Shown one piece after another: positions 2,511 through 18,365 of a stretch of DNA of 64,000 nucleotides. Below the pieces are notes generated by a model that was not told where the DNA came from, made no database searches, and worked only from the letters and a program-made list of their open reading frames with translations. Both the position numbers and the translations under genes were made by a program. The first letter of the stretch is position 1; every line of letters starts with the position of its first letter. Source of the DNA: an uncultured bacterium (GTDB lineage Bacteria > Patescibacteriota > Dojkabacteria > SC72); NCBI GenBank assembly GCA_903906305.1, contig CAIVJR010000007.1, positions 45,809 through 109,808 on the forward strand, given 5' to 3'.

Positions 2511-2817
2511 GGGCGCAAGTATTCCTAGATGATTGCTCTTGCTATTTTGGTGAGAGAGGAAAGTCCGGACTCTATGTCGGTCTCGAATATTTCGAGATAG
2601 GTGCCAGTGTGAGCTGGAAGGGAGTGATCTTTTGGTTAAAAGGGCAACAGAAAGTTATACCGCCTCGAAAGAGGTAAGGGTGAAATGGTGGTGTAAGAGA
2701 CCACCGGGTATTGTAGTAATACAATATTGCGAGGCAACCCCCACCTAGAGCAAGGTTAAAACCGCTTAGATAGATAATCATCATAAACAGAATTCGGCTT
2801 ATTGGGTGCTTGCGCAC
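2511..2817 (+). ncRNA. rnpB: RNase P RNA, bacterial type A, compact (~305 nt)
   Basis: It contains GAGGAAAGUCCGGACUC (P4 5' strand), AGGGCAACAGAAAG, GGUGAAAUGGUGGUGUAAGAGACCACC and ACAGAAUUCGGCUUA (P4 3' strand). The P1 helix pairs GCGCAAG (2513-2519) with CUUGCGC (2809-2815). Confidence 0.85.
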
Positions 2818-3861: not shown

Positions 3862-4887
3862 ATGAAAATGTCAGAATTCATATACAATTTACCAGAAGAG
3901 AAGATAGCTAAGTTTCCCCCAGAAGTAAGAGGTACCACAAACCTACTTGTTTTAGACAGAAAGGATGGAAGTTTAGATCACAAAAAGTATTTCAATATTC
4001 CAGAATATATACAACCTGGAGATGTAGTTGTACTTAACGAAACTAAGGTTGAGAAAAGAAGAACATTCTTTCTAACCGCAAATGAAAGAAAATTGGAAGT
4101 GCTTTTCCTGAATAGGATTGGAGATGGAAGATGGTATTGCCTCATAAAGGGATCGAGATATGTAAAGCCTGGAGATATCCTAAAAGGAGAGGAAGATGAA
4201 AATATTAAGATAAAGATAAGTGAAAGAAGTAATATGGGATTTTTGGTTGAACCAATGGCTGAAGAAGGAGAAAAGATTTTTGACAAGATTGGTCATACAC
4301 CAATTCCCCCATATATGAAAAGACCGGATACTAAAGAAGATTATGTAAGATACAATACGGTATTTGCACGTCTCCTGGGCTCCGTAGCGGCCCCTACAGC
4401 GAGTTTAAACCTCACAGATGAAATACTAGCCCAAATACAGCAAAAAGGGGCTAAAATCGTTAAGGTAGAGCTAAAAGTAGGTTGGGGGACATTTGCACCA
4501 ATTAGGGAGGAAAATATTGAAGAACATGACATTCATAAAGAGGAAATAGCGATATCAGTTGAATCAGCAGAGATAATTAATCAAGCAAAAAGAACAGGGA
4601 AGAAGGTGTGGGCATTTGGAACTACAGTAGCAAGGACATTGGAAACTGTAAGTAATGAAAAAGGATTAGTAGAAGAATATTCTGGAGAGACCCAGTTATA
4701 CATATACCCAGGATATACATGGAAATGTGTGGATCATTTAGTAACTAATTTCCACATGCCAGATTCAAGCCTCATATTATTAGTTTCCTCATTTGCTGGA
4801 ACTGAATTCATTAAGAGGGCATATCAAGAAGCATTGGATAATGGATATAAATTCCTTAGCTATGGTGATAGCATGTTAATAATCTAA
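3862..4887 (+). CDS. queA: S-adenosylmethionine:tRNA ribosyltransferase-isomerase
   Basis: The N-terminal YNLPEEKIAKFP and overall QueA layout are present. It is adjacent to tgt. Confidence 0.9.
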   Translation: MKMSEFIYNLPEEKIAKFPPEVRGTTNLLVLDRKDGSLDHKKYFNIPEYIQPGDVVVLNETKVEKRRTFFLTANERKLEVLFLNRIGDGRWYCLIKGSRYVKPGDILKGEEDENIKIKISERSNMGFLVEPMAEEGEKIFDKIGHTPIPPYMKRPDTKEDYVRYNTVFARLLGSVAAPTASLNLTDEILAQIQQKGAKIVKVELKVGWGTFAPIREENIEEHDIHKEEIAISVESAEIINQAKRTGKKVWAFGTTVARTLETVSNEKGLVEEYSGETQLYIYPGYTWKCVDHLVTNFHMPDSSLILLVSSFAGTEFIKRAYQEALDNGYKFLSYGDSMLII

Positions 4888-4889
4888 CT

Positions 4890-5924
4890 ATGAATATACA
4901 AGATTTTGGTAAAAAATATGTCTTTATGCCTGATGCCACTAGAGGAGCGGTTAGATTTTTGACGACTGAACAGTTAAAAGGAACTGGAACAACGGCGCTA
5001 GTTACAAATACTTTACATTTGTTAATGAATCCTGGCCCTAAAAGAATGCTGGAATTAGGTGGTATCAAGAAGCTCATGAACTGGGATGGTATTGTTTTAA
5101 CTGATTCTGGAGGATTCCAAGTATTTTCATTGATTCATTCTGGTAAATGGAAGGGTAAAGTACATGAGAATGGTGCTACATTTCATTCTCCATGGACGGG
5201 TGATGTGTATGAATTAACTCCAGAGAGTTCAATTGATATACAAATCAAAATAGGATCAGATATTTTAGTTACATTAGATGATTGTAGGGGTACTGATTTG
5301 AGTAGAGAGGATGCAGAACAATCGGTAGATAGGACAATTAAATGGGCAAAGAGGTGTAAAGATCATTTTGAAAATGTATATGGTGGTACTAAAGAGACAG
5401 GGAAACTTTTGAGTTGTGTTGTACAGGGTGCCAATTTCCCAGATTTAAGAAAGAAATGTGCAGAGGAATTAACGAAAATAGGATTTGATGGATACAACTT
5501 TGGAGGATTTGTAGTGGATAAGGATGGGGAGTTGGTGATTGATGAAATGAAAGCGGTTATAGATAATACTCCAAAGGATAAGTTTAAATATGCAATGGGA
5601 GTAGGTAAGCCTGAGGATATTCGAAGAGCTGCAAAGATTGGGTATACAGTTTTTGATACTGTACTTGTTACTAGAAATGCTAGACATGGGACTTTGTATT
5701 CTTCTGATATTGAAGATGAGGTTTTAAGGATTACCAATCAAGATTATTCTATTGATGAAAGACCTATTGATTCAAAATGTGATTGTTATACTTGCAAAAA
5801 CCATAGTAGGGCATATGTACATCAGATGTTAAAGGTTGGCGAAGCTACAGGTATGACTTTAGCTACAATACACAACTTGAGGTATTATCAAAGACTTATT
5901 GAGGACCTAAACGCAGGTCTCTAA
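4890..5924 (+). CDS. tgt: queuine tRNA-ribosyltransferase
   Basis: LTDSGGFQVFSL is present, and so is the zinc site CDCYTCKNHSRAY..H. Confidence 0.9.
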   Translation: MNIQDFGKKYVFMPDATRGAVRFLTTEQLKGTGTTALVTNTLHLLMNPGPKRMLELGGIKKLMNWDGIVLTDSGGFQVFSLIHSGKWKGKVHENGATFHSPWTGDVYELTPESSIDIQIKIGSDILVTLDDCRGTDLSREDAEQSVDRTIKWAKRCKDHFENVYGGTKETGKLLSCVVQGANFPDLRKKCAEELTKIGFDGYNFGGFVVDKDGELVIDEMKAVIDNTPKDKFKYAMGVGKPEDIRRAAKIGYTVFDTVLVTRNARHGTLYSSDIEDEVLRITNQDYSIDERPIDSKCDCYTCKNHSRAYVHQMLKVGEATGMTLATIHNLRYYQRLIEDLNAGL

Positions 5925-11819: not shown

Positions 11820-11924
11820 ATATCCCGGTATTTAATTTAGTAACGGAACATATTAATATTATGGGGGAAAGAAGTCAATAGATACAAAATATACCCAGTT
11901 TATGATAGAATTACAGCCAGAAAT

Positions 11925-11999
11925 GCCGCTATCGTCTAACGGTTAGGACATATGATTCTCAATCATACAACCGGGGTCCGATTCCCCGTAGCGGTACCA
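11925..11999 (+). tRNA. tRNA-Glu (anticodon CUC), CCA encoded
   Basis: I folded it by hand. The acceptor stem is GCCGCUA/UAGCGGU (G1-U72 wobble). The anticodon stem UAUGA/UCAUA encloses loop UUCUCAA, giving anticodon CUC. The T-stem is CGGGG/CCCCG with loop UCCGAUU (a C where U55 is normally found). The 3' end carries ACCA. Confidence 0.75.
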
Positions 12000-13381: not shown

Positions 13382-13846
13382 ATGAAAGAAAAAATACTCC
13401 TAACCAAGGAAAAGAAAGAAGCCTTAGAATTAGAATTAAAGAATTTAATTGAAGTTAAGAAACCTGAAATCTCTGCAGCTTTGGCATTAGCAAGGCAAAA
13501 TGATTTGAGTGATGACACGGATGATCTAAGCATTATGTTGGTAGAGAAGGAATCTTTTGAGGATAGGATCAAGGAATTAAAAGAACTTTTGGCAAATTCC
13601 AAGGTTATAGATAAAAAATTCTGTACTCCAAACAAAGTAAGTGTTGGTTCTGAAATCAAAGTTGAATTCAATGGAAAGAAACAGGATTTAAAACTTGTAA
13701 CTACATTGGAATCAGATCCACTAAAAGGATATATATCTGAAGGTTCTCCATTAGGTAAAGCTTTGTTAAAAGCTCAAGTAGGGAAGACCGTTGATTTCAA
13801 GGTAAAGGGAAGAAAATTTGAATACAAGATCTTAGAGATTTGCTAA
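13382..13846 (+). CDS. GreA/GreB-family paralogue (second Gre factor)
   Basis: It has a 154-aa coiled-coil N-terminus plus a C-terminal FKBP-like domain (GSPLGKALLKAQVGKTV). The coiled-coil tip (NDLSDDTDD) diverges from canonical DxxE. Confidence 0.6.
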   Translation: MKEKILLTKEKKEALELELKNLIEVKKPEISAALALARQNDLSDDTDDLSIMLVEKESFEDRIKELKELLANSKVIDKKFCTPNKVSVGSEIKVEFNGKKQDLKLVTTLESDPLKGYISEGSPLGKALLKAQVGKTVDFKVKGRKFEYKILEIC

Positions 13847-15115
13847 ATCTTCAATCTTAACTCTTTCTTGCTTCATTGTATCTCTGTCTCTAACTGTTAC
13901 AGTATTATCTTCTAGTGTTTGATAATCCACAGTTATACAGTATGGTGTACCAATTTCATCTTGGTATCGATATCTTTTCCCGATATTGCCTCTCGCATCC
14001 CATACAACCTTCTTGGTATCTGTAAGCTTCTCAAATATTTCTCTAGCCTTGTTAACAATTTCTTCTTTGTTAGAAACCAATGGGAATACCGCGGCTTTGT
14101 ATGCAGCTATCTCAGGATTAATCTTTAATACTGTCCTAATCTCACCATTCTCTAAAGTTTCTTCCTCATATGAGTCTAAAAGTAAGAACAAGAATGTTCT
14201 GTCCACACCACCTGAAGTTTCAACAATGTTTGGCATGTATTTTTCACCTGTTTGAGGATCGGTATATGACAAATCTTTCCCAGAGAATTTACTATGCTGT
14301 GTTAGATCGTAATCACCTCTCCAGTGTATACCTTCATTTTCAGCCCATCCCCATGGTGCTAGATATTCAACATCAAAAGCTTTCTTAGCATAGAAGACTA
14401 ATTTTTCTTTTGGATGTTCAAAGAATCTCAGATTCTCATGCTTTCGGTATAGCTTCTTGTAGAAGTTCATTCTTTCTTCCTTCCAATATTCAAATGATTT
14501 TTCCATATCGTTTGGATGAACGAAATACTGCATATCCCATTGCTCAAATTCTCTAGTTCTGAATGTAAACTTGTTCGGAGTGATTTCATTTCTAAATGCT
14601 TTTCCAATTTGTGCAATACCAAAAGGAATTTGTTGTCTTGTAGAATCAACAACATTTTTAAAATCAAGATATATGGTTTGGCAGGCTTCACCTCTGAGGT
14701 ATGCTGTTACTTTTTCTCCTTCAATTACACCGACTTCGGTTTTAAAAAGCATATTGTATGTTCTTGGTTCTGTGAATTCTGTTCCACCACACTTTGGACA
14801 TTTGCCATCTATATCTTCAGGTCTAAATCTTGCATGACATTTTTTACATTCAACAGCTTCATCCCCAAAACCTTTGATATGACCAGATGCCTCCCATACT
14901 TTTGGATGGGTGATAATGGTTCCATCAATACCAACAACATTCTCTCGTTTGTCTACCATGTTCTTCCACCAATATCTTTTGAGATTGTTCTTCATCTCTA
15001 CACCTACAGGACCATAATCATAGAATCCTCCTATACCACCATATATTTCAGAATTTTGAAATATAATACCTCTTCTTTTACTGAGGGATGTGACTTTTTG
15101 TAGAAGATCTTCCAT
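13832..15115 (-). CDS. glyQS: glycine--tRNA ligase (dimeric class II type)
   Basis: IFQNSEIYGGIGGFYDYGPVGVE and the class II motifs are present, as is the anticodon-binding region. Confidence 0.9.
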   Translation of the reverse strand: MEDLLQKVTSLSKRRGIIFQNSEIYGGIGGFYDYGPVGVEMKNNLKRYWWKNMVDKRENVVGIDGTIITHPKVWEASGHIKGFGDEAVECKKCHARFRPEDIDGKCPKCGGTEFTEPRTYNMLFKTEVGVIEGEKVTAYLRGEACQTIYLDFKNVVDSTRQQIPFGIAQIGKAFRNEITPNKFTFRTREFEQWDMQYFVHPNDMEKSFEYWKEERMNFYKKLYRKHENLRFFEHPKEKLVFYAKKAFDVEYLAPWGWAENEGIHWRGDYDLTQHSKFSGKDLSYTDPQTGEKYMPNIVETSGGVDRTFLFLLLDSYEEETLENGEIRTVLKINPEIAAYKAAVFPLVSNKEEIVNKAREIFEKLTDTKKVVWDARGNIGKRYRYQDEIGTPYCITVDYQTLEDNTVTVRDRDTMKQERVKIEDLANL

Positions 15116-15223: not shown

Positions 15224-16768
15224 ATGGAGGATACACAAAGGAGTGACATGCTCGGACAAAGACAAGTAAGATTAGAGAAAATCGAAGCACTCAAGAAGTT
15301 AGGTGTGGAGATATATCCTGCGAAGTCATATAAACAATTTCACAATGGAGAAATATTAAACAATTTTGAAAAATATGAAGGGCAAGAAGTCTGTCTTGCG
15401 GGTAGAGTAGTAGCCTGGAGAGAGCATGGACAACTTTTGTTTGGAAATATAATGGATCAAACTGGAACCATCCAGATCATGGTTAGAGAAAGTGAGCTTG
15501 TTGAAGACCTTGCTAAGGGATATTTGGGATTTGATAAGTTGACGCTTTTGGATTTGGCAGATTTTGTTGAAGTCTATGGAATCATCGGCAAAACTAAAAC
15601 TGGTGAAATTTCGGTTATGGTTAAAAACATAAGGTTGCTTTCTAAAGCATTAAGACCAATTCCACGAAAATTGGAAAACAAAGAGCAGATATTTAGAAGA
15701 AGATATTTGGATTTGGTAGTAGATAGGGAAAGTTTTGAGATGTTTAAGAGGAAAGCTCAATTCTGGCAGGTACAGAGAGATCTTCTAAGAAGCGAAGGCT
15801 TTATAGAAGTTGAAGTTCCTGTAATGGAAGCTATAACTGGTGGAGCAGATGCTAGGCCATTTGTTACACATCATAATGCTTTAAATCAGGATTTCTTTTT
15901 AAGAATTTCTACGGAATTGTATCAAAAGAGGTTAATAGGTGGTGGATATGAAAAGATATATACATTAGGTCCTAACTTCAGAAATGAAGGTATGGATGAT
16001 GAACATCTTCCAGAATTCCAAGATATCGAATGGTATTGGGCATATGCCAATTACAGAGATAATATGGATTTAGTAAGAAGATTGTTCTTAGAGATTGCTA
16101 ACAAGGTATATGGTAGAACCAAGTTTACAACTAGAGGTCATACATTTGATTTAGCTGATGAATGGAAGGAATTAGACTATACAACAATAATCAAGGAAAG
16201 GTTTGATATTGATATCTTCAACGATTCAGATGAGAAGATGTTAAAGGTTATAGAGGACAACCATATTGAGATGGGTGGTGAAGTAAACAGAAATAGATTA
16301 ATTGATACGCTTTGGAAAGCTATTAGGGCTACAATATCTGGCCCTGCATTCTTAGTGAATCAACCAAAATTTGTTTCTCCTTTAGCAAAATCACATCAGG
16401 ATAATCCTGAATTAACAGAAAGATTCCAAGTAATAATTGCAGGGAGTGAATTGGGTAATGGATATTCTGAAATTAATGATCCTCAAGATCAATTAGATAG
16501 ATTCTTGGAACAACAGGCTTTAAGAGAGAGTGGGGATGATGAGGCTCAGATGTTAGATATTGATTTTGTTGAGATGTTGGAATATGGTATGCCACCTACG
16601 AGTGGTTATGGTCAAAGTGAGAGAATATTCTGGTTCTTAGAAGATGTTTCTGGTAGAGAAGGTATATTCTTCCCACCTATGAGGATAGAAGTAGAGAATA
16701 CGACTAAAGAAATATACAAGGACAAAGTCAAATTCAAGGAAACGGTTAAGAAAGAGGAGAAGAAATAA
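15224..16768 (+). CDS. lysS: lysine--tRNA ligase (class II)
   Basis: An N-terminal OB fold is followed by the class II core (FIEVEVPVM, GPNFRNEGMDDEHLPEF, GGSE). Confidence 0.9.
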   Translation: MEDTQRSDMLGQRQVRLEKIEALKKLGVEIYPAKSYKQFHNGEILNNFEKYEGQEVCLAGRVVAWREHGQLLFGNIMDQTGTIQIMVRESELVEDLAKGYLGFDKLTLLDLADFVEVYGIIGKTKTGEISVMVKNIRLLSKALRPIPRKLENKEQIFRRRYLDLVVDRESFEMFKRKAQFWQVQRDLLRSEGFIEVEVPVMEAITGGADARPFVTHHNALNQDFFLRISTELYQKRLIGGGYEKIYTLGPNFRNEGMDDEHLPEFQDIEWYWAYANYRDNMDLVRRLFLEIANKVYGRTKFTTRGHTFDLADEWKELDYTTIIKERFDIDIFNDSDEKMLKVIEDNHIEMGGEVNRNRLIDTLWKAIRATISGPAFLVNQPKFVSPLAKSHQDNPELTERFQVIIAGSELGNGYSEINDPQDQLDRFLEQQALRESGDDEAQMLDIDFVEMLEYGMPPTSGYGQSERIFWFLEDVSGREGIFFPPMRIEVENTTKEIYKDKVKFKETVKKEEKK

Positions 16769-16782
16769 TAGAAATTTGTTAA

Positions 16783-16847
16783 CCAATCCTTCTTCTCTTA
16801 TATTCTCACATATGAGTAATGCACATAGTGGCAAGAAGAAGGATTGG
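16783..16847. terminator. 13-bp inverted repeat hairpin between lysS and the minus-strand tRNA (possible bidirectional terminator)
   Basis: CCAATCCTTCTTC (16783-16795) and GAAGAAGGATTGG (16835-16847) enclose 39 nt. The hairpin sits between two convergent 3' ends. Confidence 0.35.
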
Positions 16848-16855
16848 ACTATATT

Positions 16856-16932
16856 TGGCTCCTCGTGCGTGGGTTCGAACCCGCGACCTAGTGATTACAA
16901 TCACCCGCTCTAACCAACTGAGCTAACGAGGA
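16856..16932 (-). tRNA. tRNA, anticodon region reads GUA (Tyr); class I, irregular anticodon arm and T-stem
   Basis: On the minus strand the acceptor stem is UCCUCGU/ACGAGGA and the D-arm is UAGCUCAGUUGGUUAGAGC. The T-loop is UUCGAAC. The 3' end carries G then CCA. The anticodon arm is only 16 nt (GGUGA-UUGUAA-UCACU). The T-stem needs a bulged A to pair. Confidence 0.65.
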
Positions 16933-17131
16933 ACAAAAAGTGGTGCATGTGTTATGGGATTGGGACCCTACCGTCTCGGTATCCAAGCGAGAGCGATGCT
17001 TCTTTCTAAGCTACACATTGCACCATAATATTGTGATATCTACCTGATTTAACGGACAAATCGCACTCTTATTGAGCTCAGTAGATATACTACAAAAATT
17101 TCAAAGAACAAATTTCATTAATAATAAAGAA

Positions 17132-17160
17132 ATTATAATATAACTATTTCTATCGGTCAA
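17132..17160 (-). promoter_or_regulatory. sigma70-like promoter on the minus strand (TTGACC-17 nt-TATAAT) upstream of the tRNA leader
   Basis: Reading the minus strand, TTGACC is the complement of 17155-17160 and TATAAT is the complement of 17132-17137. The spacer is exactly 17 nt. Confidence 0.45.
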
Positions 17161-17197
17161 TCTAAAACAATCTATATATTTCTGATATCATTAACAT

Positions 17198-17569
17198 ATG
17201 GAATCAATCAAAGACTTATTACAACAAATCAAACAAGGAGCAGAAGAGAAGGCTGATGAAACCAGTACTCCGCAGAATACACTCTTTGATACAAAGAAAT
17301 TAGCCACTAACCCTAACAAGCTGTTTGATAACAAACATAAGTACATATCTACTGAATATCAAATGTATGGACTTAGATTAGCAGGAAAACTAGATGACAA
17401 GAAACGAGCTACAATGTATATCAAATGGGCTAAGGAAAAACCAAGAGCAATACTAGAAATGGCATATAGCTTCTGTATAGACTATCCAAGTGCAAGAGAT
17501 AAAAGTAAGATATTTATGTGGAAAGTAAAAGAACTAGAAGATGAAAGAAAAAATAAACCAAAAGAGTAA
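17198..17569 (+). CDS. hypothetical protein
   Basis: A 123-aa ORF rich in K/E and carrying no motif I recognise. It overlaps the start of the next ORF. Confidence 0.4.
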   Translation: MESIKDLLQQIKQGAEEKADETSTPQNTLFDTKKLATNPNKLFDNKHKYISTEYQMYGLRLAGKLDDKKRATMYIKWAKEKPRAILEMAYSFCIDYPSARDKSKIFMWKVKELEDERKNKPKE

Positions 17570-18365
17570 TTTCAAAAATATTCTTAAGCGAATAACTAAG
17601 ATGTTTTTTGCGCAGGAATTTATGCACAAAGAACAGCTACTTGTTTGGATTATTGCGGATATTATTAAGATTGCGGGATTATGTTTTGTATGGGCTGCAT
17701 CTGCTCGAATGACGGGGAATATGGATCAAGGATATGTGATCACATACTACGTAATGATGATTTTAGTTGGCAAACTTATGCAAGATATTACTCCTGAAAA
17801 TGGGGTAAGACAGATTTTAAACGGAAAATTCTCCAACTCTCTTCTTAAACCTATGTCATATCTGACAGAATATTTGGGAAGTAATATGGGGTCGAATTTT
17901 TTTAGGCTAATAGTCTCAATCCCTGCTTTTGGATTAGGAATGTATATTACGAATAGACTTGGGTTTTGGATAGTGGATTTCAATCCATATTTGATACTGC
18001 TAGGGCTATTTGCTGTTGTACTAGGCTTTTTGATCAATTTCCTCTTAGGGAATATTTTTGCCATGTTGGCCTTTTACAACAAAAATATGGAAGGAATGAG
18101 AATCTTTTATAGTAATATTACAGCAACCTTTTCGGGAGAATACATACCCTTTGTGGCATTACCATTAGTGGCTTTGTTCACGGTACAGGTATTACCTTTC
18201 AGATATACACTTTCCTTTCCAATTGAAATTCTATTAGGAAGAATGACAAACTATGATATTGGTCTAGGATTTTTAATTGGAATTGTATGGCTAATTGCCT
18301 TGTATATCATCTATTCTATTTTCTTTAAGATATCCATAAAAAAATATGCAGCAGAAGGGATATAG
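17541..18365 (+). CDS. polytopic membrane protein, ABC-2-type permease-like
   Basis: It has about 6 TM helices. The size and paired arrangement match ABC-2 family permeases. No ATPase gene is adjacent. Confidence 0.4.
   Translation: MKEKINQKSNFKNILKRITKMFFAQEFMHKEQLLVWIIADIIKIAGLCFVWAASARMTGNMDQGYVITYYVMMILVGKLMQDITPENGVRQILNGKFSNSLLKPMSYLTEYLGSNMGSNFFRLIVSIPAFGLGMYITNRLGFWIVDFNPYLILLGLFAVVLGFLINFLLGNIFAMLAFYNKNMEGMRIFYSNITATFSGEYIPFVALPLVALFTVQVLPFRYTLSFPIEILLGRMTNYDIGLGFLIGIVWLIALYIIYSIFFKISIKKYAAEGI

Follow-up and report, generated by a model that had tools for sequence, protein, structure and literature searches.

What is transcribed from the minus strand between lysS and the gene that follows it in this Dojkabacteria genome, and does a hairpin placed directly ahead of a tRNA there stop the transcript or form part of it? 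The window, by which we mean the whole stretch of DNA analysed (64,000 nt, G+C ~35%), includes trmD, an RNase P RNA gene and several genes for aminoacyl-tRNA synthetases, and orthologous loci, denoted below by L numbers, are found in metagenome-assembled genomes (MAGs) of candidate division WS6/Dojkabacteria and of other Patescibacteria. The original prediction described a consensus promoter followed by a structured leader that ended in a hairpin and a U run immediately before a tRNA. It offered a separate small RNA, an attenuator of tRNA output or a very long processed leader as explanations, and proposed an Rfam scan and a search for conservation and covariation of the closing helix. All of these features map to the minus strand of one intergenic region, the sequence of which is identical over its 429 nt in the independent assembly L041; its oddities are thus not one-off assembly errors. 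The cassette found there is most likely a compact stable-RNA unit of ~345 nt, encoded on the minus strand between lysS and a 123-aa gene and consisting of the following elements:

16769-17197, between lysS and the 123-aa gene, both on the plus strand: intergenic region of 429 nt that holds the cassette
17132-17160, minus strand: sigma-70-type promoter, TTGACC-17 nt-TATAAT
17088-17123, minus strand: small hairpin of the 5' leader in the minimum free energy (MFE) fold
17031-17095, minus strand: Y-shaped three-way junction, fold z=-3.0
16941-17025, minus strand: 85-nt non-decoding cloverleaf, a four-way junction in both the MFE and the centroid fold
17025-17013 paired with 16952-16941, minus strand: cloverleaf helix P1, 12 bp with A17018 bulged
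17011-16998, minus strand: D-like arm of the cloverleaf, 4 bp with the 6-nt loop AGAAAG
16997-16970, minus strand: P3, the "anticodon" arm of the cloverleaf, 9 bp with one bulge and the 9-nt loop CUUGGAUAC at 16987-16979
16968-16956, minus strand: P4, the T-like arm of the cloverleaf, GGG UCCCAAU CCC, 3 bp with a 7-nt loop
16933-16940, minus strand: 8-nt U-rich spacer CUUUUUGU between the ACCA of the cloverleaf and tRNA position +1
16856-16932, minus strand: aberrant Asn-like tRNA with encoded CCA, Rfam tRNA score 38.9 bits
16783-16847, minus strand: long 15-bp hairpin that closes the cassette, fold z=-5.6

The product of lysS is a class II LysRS (NCBIfam), and the 123-aa gene, to which no function is assigned, is followed by ABC-2 permease genes. 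A functional tie of the cassette to the adjoining synthetase is unlikely: the synthetase is specific for lysine, the tRNAs of the cassettes are never tRNA-Lys, and lysS occurs without a cassette. Since relatives of the latter kind exist, the adjacency of lysS is probably incidental.

The promoter is present where it had been predicted, at the complement of 17132-17160, and agrees with the consensus at 11 of 12 positions. The match alone is not significant, because the AT-rich 64-kb window contains three sites with at most one mismatch, where 1.3 are expected by chance. Its credibility comes from the related genomes, in all cassettes of which the -35 sequence TTGACC, a spacer of 15-18 nt and the -10 box are kept. 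The promoter overlaps the divergent upstream region of the plus-strand 123-aa gene. Directly after the -10 box, the sequence YUGUUCWU is found in L002, L005, L016, L020, L031, L038 and others; the corresponding UGUUCUU motif lies at 17110-17104 in the small 5' hairpin of the window and is found again close to the 5' end in every cassette transcript. The expectation of a promoter-driven, structured leader ahead of the tRNA is likewise borne out, with a length of roughly 200 nt and conservation in related genomes, and the 198-nt leader folds with z=-2.4. Minus-strand open reading frames in the intergenic region do not exceed 32 aa, in agreement with the predicted absence of any notable one. The ordinary tRNA-Glu of the window has a leader of only ~13 nt. 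The promoter region of this tRNA-Glu(CUC) gene (11895-11925, plus strand, GATAGAATTACAGCC) has 15 nt identical to the -10/discriminator region of the L016 cassette, which suggests, at the level of sequence, that the two use one type of stable-RNA promoter.

Just upstream of the cloverleaf lies the Y-shaped junction, with the sequence UAUCUAC - UGA - GCUC AAUAA GAGU - GC - GAUUU GUCCGUU AAAUC - AG - GUAGAUA. It is closed by a 7-bp stem and contains a GCUC/GAGU arm and a hairpin of 5 bp with a 7-nt loop; by eye it can be read as a tRNA that lacks the T arm. L003, L004 and L012 all keep the closing stem unchanged. The inner hairpin covaries in L003, where an A-U pair becomes G.U and a U-A pair becomes C-G. 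The interior of the junction is partly deleted in L004 and in L012, and the inner hairpin is thus dispensable. L012 is a strain variant of the L003 species, and in it (4722-4905, plus strand) a 20-nt deletion removes most of the junction interior and leaves the cloverleaf untouched.

The closing helix of the 3' half of the leader had been predicted correctly: it is formed by GGUGCAAUGUG (17024-17014) and CACAUGCACC (16951-16942), leaving one A bulged at 17018, and the helix gains one U-A pair at each end to reach its full length of 12 bp. The hairpins expected inside it are there as well, three of them according to MFE folding. A 96-nt segment folds with z=-3.65 and the 85-nt element with z=-3.15, and folding of L003 and L004 on their own predicts these four helices too. 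Read in the manner of a tRNA, the element runs 5'-(UGGU)GCA(A)UGUG-UA-GCUU AGAAAG AAGC-A-[long arm]-A-GGG UCCCAAU CCC-AUA(A)-CACAUGC-A-CCA. Its tRNA landmarks are thus the acceptor-like stem, the U8-A9 connector, the D-like arm, a T-like loop (UNNNAAU) whose first position is U and whose fifth is A, and the 3' end ...CACAUGC-A-CCA, in which a discriminator A precedes an encoded CCA. CCA is also encoded by two of the three tRNAs of the window, tRNA-Glu and the Asn-like tRNA. The junction linkers of 1, 0, 1 and 3 nt are unlike those of tRNA. The supposed terminator hairpin is, on the predicted fold, best described as the closing stem of an 85-nt tRNA-shaped RNA.

The tRNA shape does not make the element a member of a known family. 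The Rfam scan returned nothing but the downstream tRNA, and no family fits the leader or the cloverleaf at E<=10; the tRNA model RF00005, with a gathering threshold of 29 bits, has no match to 17025-16941 even at that level. In 16780-17260, non-tRNA families (T-box, riboswitches, ribozymes, 6S, SRP, tmRNA and YrlA included) give no match at E<0.8, and the scan of eight related loci at E<=1 finds tRNA alone, from the downstream genes. ARAGORN with default settings does not call the cloverleaf as a tRNA, makes only inconsistent calls for it with relaxed thresholds (50-80%) and the intron and mitochondrial options, and finds no tmRNA. T-box and riboswitch identities were rejected for want of a model match and with a tRNA as the downstream gene, and a YrlA/Y RNA identity was rejected for the wrong order of arms and the missing Rfam match. 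By eye, the P3 loop shows only 4-5 nt matches to the downstream tRNA or the CCA end, and the idea of such pairing was dropped.

The departures from canonical tRNA are found in every arm. The acceptor can be read as GCA(A)UGUG/CACAUGC followed by A and CCA, with a U-A connector, but it contains a bulged A, and the helix runs on into the leader (UGGU:ACCA). The D-like loop AGAAAG lacks the G18G19 that in canonical tRNA pairs with psi55/C56 of the T loop. The T-like stem, of 3 bp, is joined to the acceptor by a linker of 3-4 nt, whereas a canonical T stem of 5 bp stacks directly; its loop keeps U1 and A5 and varies at positions 2-4 (UCCCAAU, UUAUAAU, UUCUAAU). In place of a 5-bp stem with a 7-nt anticodon loop that has U33 and a purine at 37 there is an arm of 9 bp with one bulge and a loop of 9 nt in the window, 11 nt in L003 and 12 nt in L004. 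An arm of this length, with a loop that varies in size between species, means that the cloverleaf cannot decode. Nor does the element fit an allo-tRNA of the 8/4 or 9/3 type: its acceptor helix measures 8 or 11-12 bp depending on the reading, the T stem 3 bp, and a variable arm is absent, with 1 nt between P3 and P4. We also built a covariance model, R1, from the cloverleaf of three orthologues. Its best non-self match is the tRNA-His-like gene of L017 with a modest score of 18.4 bits, the sole other match with E<0.1 (E=0.015 in a 176-kb search, 0.007 in an 82-kb search), and the alignment places the D arm, the T arm and the inner acceptor in register. Since the model picks out a real tRNA with its arms in register, the cloverleaf appears to be a remodelled, tRNA-derived element. 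Because it fails the testable defining features of tRNA, allo-tRNA and intrinsic terminator, we file it as a variant of the irregular tRNA-like genes, outside every named family.

The same leader is found in two other Dojkabacteria species, L003 (with the identical L012-L015) and L004. Both keep the cloverleaf, and the variation is concentrated in its loops. P1, P3 and P4 are invariant across the three species, while the three loops differ in sequence, and that of P3 in length too; one pair of the D-like arm reads U-A, U.G and C-G. Variable columns make up 5 of 56 paired but 14 of 31 unpaired positions (Fisher p=2e-4, three species), and 32 of 104 columns of the remaining leader are variable. 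P1 and the spacer are conserved at 100% although the tRNA behind them has been replaced: L003 and L004 carry an Ile(GAU)-like tRNA there and the window an Asn-like one. The covariation proposed as a check is represented by one compensatory pair in alignment A3, in which 96% of the cells are paired; shuffled alignments reach the observed score in 325 of 500 cases, and with three distinct sequences the comparison is underpowered. The data show purifying selection on the helical segments and do not prove the fold itself; since covariation is statistically nil, the conservation of the stems could come from a constraint at the sequence or DNA level. The search for further diversity in public data brought little: an exact pattern of the conserved T-like arm and junction has no match in IMG/VR and is present in four contigs of the JGI metagenomes, all from the L003 species.

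The tRNA behind the spacer is itself irregular. Its anticodon loop has 6 nt, UUGUAA, where the canonical Asn loop is UUGUUAA, and the 3' strand of its T stem contains an extra A, which the Rfam alignment displays as an insert together with a missing loop base. ARAGORN labels the gene 'tRNA-??? (gt)'. It is ~79% identical to phage tRNA-Asn genes, and in a BLAST search of the cassette against 50,697 phage records it is the only part to find a match, with none for the leader. The gene is identical in the second assembly, L041, and could be a pseudogene or a non-decoding tRNA. The long hairpin beyond it is, judging by its predicted fold, probably a terminator shared with the convergent lysS gene. 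An equivalent hairpin, CCAAyC...GrUUGG, stands at the end of all cassettes, in several of them followed by U5-6 on the minus strand.

Comparison of the locus among relatives places these elements in a wider frame. In distant relatives (L008-L010, L023-L028, L036, L037) the 123-aa gene directly follows lysS with a gap of 30-60 nt. Other relatives have a minus-strand unit inserted, with a length of 429-439 nt and a constant plan common to 13 of 13 cassettes: promoter, small 5' hairpin, closed structured domain, spacer of 3-9 nt, tRNA and hairpin. The structured domain measures 100-170 nt, and its sequences are unrelated between cassette types. The tRNAs are equally diverse: Thr GGU, Thr UGU, Arg UCG, Glu UUC, His GUG/AUG, Phe GAA, Leu-like AAG, Ile-like and Asn-like, with Rfam scores from 72 down to 27 bits; the Ile(GAU)-like tRNA of L003 and L004 has odd D and T loops. 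Entirely different cassettes occupy the locus in L016, L017 and L018, though their 123-aa protein is 93-98% identical to that of the window. BLAST of all cassettes against the 64-kb window finds no second copy, so the cassette is not a repeated mobile element there.

An exchange at small evolutionary distance is seen between L038/L040 and L039. Of the flanks, ~2.9 kb in all, one agrees at 2360 of 2360 nt and the other at 516 of 518 nt; promoter, leader and 3' part are shared as well, which leaves the tRNA module as the only difference. This module consists of a hairpin and a Leu(AAG)-like tRNA of class-I shape (116 nt) in the former and of a tRNA-Thr(GGU) (80 nt) in the latter (L038:1519-2000, L040:1497-1978 and L039:1555-2000, minus strand). 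The same sequencing project yielded L039 and L040. Near-clonal populations are therefore polymorphic at this locus, which is modular. We think it rather doubtful, though worth stating, that the locus is reserved for the expression of exchangeable modules, tRNAs and tRNA mimics, with the frame fixed and the payload swapped, and with the polymorphism kept by diversifying or frequency-dependent selection. Non-decoding or altered tRNAs could then serve, for example, as decoys or as resistant spares against the tRNA-targeting nucleases of phages, hosts or competitors, the cloverleaf being one such mimic.

Several further modules were observed in the related loci. In L017 (2192-2270) and L018 (2194-2269), both on the minus strand, a tRNA-His with the hallmark G-1:C73 pair and the anticodon AUG and GUG, respectively, is followed by a tRNA-like mini-helix (GCCUUUG UAGCUCAGCUA CUCUCAAAGGC). 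L016 and L020 have in common a module GGUGCCCCCCUCAC placed 3' of the cassette tRNA, while L031, L038 and L039 share a closed domain of ~75 nt after the tRNA (UUGGGUAAGGUGUAC...CCCAA). Second transcription units on the minus strand, each with its own promoter of the TTGACCTATAAT type, are present at L016:1626-2100, L006:5525-7135, L001:5540-6265 and L003:5543-5800. They begin with a weak tRNA-like 5' domain with the T arm UGGGUUCAAUUCCCA (Rfam tRNA score of 26.8 bits in L016), which in L016 and L006 is followed by ~300 nt of further RNA and a hairpin-U6 terminator. These four units have no match to an Rfam family and receive no tmRNA call.

The explanation that we hold to be somewhat better than an even chance is that one promoter drives a precursor of three tRNA-derived modules and a closing hairpin, which is processed to a tRNA-shaped, non-decoding RNA. 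From the anatomy we infer the following course of expression. The primary transcript would run from the promoter to the 16847-16783 hairpin and would carry, in order, the Y junction without a T arm, the 85-nt cloverleaf and the Asn-like tRNA with its broken anticodon loop. The closing helix of the cloverleaf would correspond to 7 bp with a discriminator A and an encoded CCA, the 5' leader sequence UGGU pairing with ACCA. RNase P would cut at the 5' end of the tRNA and perhaps at that of the cloverleaf too, and exonucleases would shorten the U-rich trailer until they reach the paired ACCA end. This would yield a stable RNA of ~80-85 nt, shaped like a tRNA but unable to decode, together with the aberrant tRNA. 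The RNase P RNA gene of the window (2515-2817, plus strand; class A, a compact 303 nt, 153.5 bits) is relevant here because it supplies the enzyme presumed to process the transcript. As the cloverleaf cannot decode, it may act as a non-translational tRNA mimic or as a scaffold for folding or processing. No part of the cassette can be essential, because many relatives lack it and L004 and L012 have lost parts of the leader.

The hairpin and U run had been taken for an intrinsic terminator. If the 12-bp helix and CUUUUU halted a fraction of the transcripts, a small RNA of ~190 nt would be released and tRNA output would be throttled, an outcome that we judge quite unlikely. The U run does follow the helix as described (CUUUUU at 16940-16935), the stem leading directly into 5 U in 8 nt. 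It is kept as U5-U6 in L003 and L004, L002 and L005 also show UAUUUUGUU after their closing helices, and hairpins with U5-6 are used by the lineage as terminators at the ends of several cassettes. However, a consensus terminator scan of 16000-18000 does not report the helix and U run. The pattern also departs from a compact G+C-rich hairpin with a loop of 3-8 nt: the U tract scores 5 of 8, and the "loop" is a branched domain of 61 nt with three hairpins. The closing helix is retained in L016, L017, L018 and L031 without a U run, and the downstream tRNA, lacking a promoter of its own, depends on read-through. An intrinsic terminator is thus not the best reading of what is an 85-nt four-way junction with tRNA landmarks, the helix of which ends in a 3' ACCA. 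The tRNA does come just after the U run, with a gap of two nucleotides, G16934 and U16933, rather than the single G first described; both ARAGORN and Rfam set tRNA +1 at 16932. The spacer ...ACCACUUUUUGUU is kept in the window, L003 and L004, UUUUGUU is found directly 5' of the tRNA in L003, L004, L002 and L005, ahead of different tRNAs, and the homology between the window and L004 stops exactly at the tRNA +1 boundary. Since the scan makes no call and other cassettes keep the closing helix often without the U run, we read the five U, on sequence grounds, as a spacer between genes and a leader for RNase P rather than a dedicated terminator, and the cloverleaf makes better sense as a tRNA-like gene placed in tandem with the tRNA. 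Of the three options offered originally, the separate RNA and the very long processed leader come closest; attenuation is possible but gained no support.

Two other explanations do away with a processed minus-strand RNA altogether. The cloverleaf and the Y junction might be evolutionary debris, functionless tRNA pseudogenes at a hot spot of tRNA recombination or integration. All three modules are indeed defective as tRNAs, L004 and L012 have internal deletions, the cassette is patchy among close relatives, sibling cassettes contain tRNA fragments such as the mini-helix of L017 and L018, and the acceptors of L016, L020 and L039 contain mismatches. Debris would hardly be expected to show substitutions that avoid helices or P1, P3 and P4 that stay invariant in three species while the surrounding leader varies, nor a consensus-grade promoter and a terminator hairpin kept in every cassette, nor a near-constant length despite unrelated content, and we regard this explanation as unlikely. 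Far less credible, to the point of being nearly negligible, is a function on the plus strand, as an element of the lysS 3' UTR or terminator or of the 5' UTR of the 123-aa gene. Both flanking genes lie on that strand, and it folds equally well (-32.1 kcal/mol, z=-3.15), so the assignment to the minus strand rests on the orientation of promoter and tRNA and on U.G pairs. The plus-strand MFE structure forms different helices, and two U.G pairs, the invariant one in P3 and that of the D-like arm of L003, would become A.C on this strand. The element also sits between a minus-strand promoter and a minus-strand tRNA, cassette-free relatives have just 30-60 nt between the two genes, and neither strand has an Rfam match. 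The processed tRNA-like precursor on the minus strand remains the reading that we prefer.

Our search of the literature for non-canonical tRNAs of CPR/Patescibacteria found nothing specific. The closest parallels to the cassette are the polycistrons of allo-tRNAs and irregular tRNA-like genes from soil bacteria, known from metagenomes (Mukai et al. 2017, PMC5389517; review PMC7609411). In allo-tRNAs the acceptor branch measures 12 bp (8/4 or 9/3), the variable arm is long and the anticodon loop has 7 nt; many of them are charged by SerRS (PMC5389517). Like the cassette, their polycistrons are of metagenomic origin and contain tandem, co-transcribed tRNA-shaped genes with a long acceptor, a T stem of 3-4 bp and diverse or shifting anticodons, some members being inactive in translation. 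The cloverleaf differs in lacking a variable arm, in its 9-bp arm with a loop of 9-12 nt and in the linkers between T stem and acceptor, and the cassette differs in occurring in CPR bacteria at one fixed, strain-variable locus. Other small stable RNAs with a tRNA-like fold that are not ordinary decoders are tRNA-Other of Bacillus cereus (Ataide et al. 2005, in PMC5389517) and YrlA (PMC4201824); both keep features of the T-loop and acceptor type, as the cloverleaf does. The cloverleaf has no sequence or Rfam match to either, and its order of arms is unlike that of YrlA, in which the stem of the 5' and 3' ends replaces the anticodon stem (PMC4201824).

In its layout the cassette resembles multi-tRNA operons cut by RNase P, with members arranged head to tail, a few U-rich nucleotides between them, encoded CCA, one promoter and one terminator; unlike in such operons, neither member is canonical, and the first is preceded by ~105 nt of extra structured leader, against the ~13 nt of the tRNA-Glu here. 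With supernumerary, horizontally spread tRNA arrays it has in common an accessory nature, a patchy presence in sister strains and the inclusion of some pseudogenes (PMC8421152, PMC4758250). A role of these arrays in stress or outside translation is suspected, and they comprise 20-43 genes on plasmids or mobile elements (PMC8421152, PMC4758250). By contrast, the cassette holds 1-3 modules at a fixed chromosomal site in a conserved frame of promoter and terminator. A Rho-independent terminator or attenuator shares with it the stable helix and the U run directly after, but here the helix closes a branched 85-nt domain instead of a short loop, and a gene dependent on read-through begins 8 nt further on.

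CPR genomes are tiny, and a maintained, strongly promoted cassette of non-decoding tRNA look-alikes is unexpected in them. A cloverleaf that is expressed and processed would be one more bacterial tRNA mimic, and the locus would exemplify a natural, modular exchange of tRNA-type genes between strains. Such exchange bears on how tRNA genes gain new anticodons and identities, and may bear on tRNA-centred conflicts with phages or toxins. If the cloverleaf is debris, the finding is simply a hot spot of tRNA genes. In either case gene callers miss the cloverleaf and label the neighbouring tRNA '???', and the tRNA inventories of such MAGs are distorted accordingly.

Two observations were made elsewhere in the window. 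RNA motifs of the DUF3800-IX class, the function of which is unassigned (PMC5737381), occur at 54375-54446 and 55151-55222 on the minus strand with scores of 58.6 and 56.3 bits; they flank a plus-strand ORF of 213 aa (54543-55184), and each is preceded by a -10-like box of its own. The GlyRS encoded at 13832-15115 on the minus strand carries a short insertion, at residues ~66-112, that matches the zinc-ribbon-like DUF7129 and segments of the archaeal PolII large subunit.
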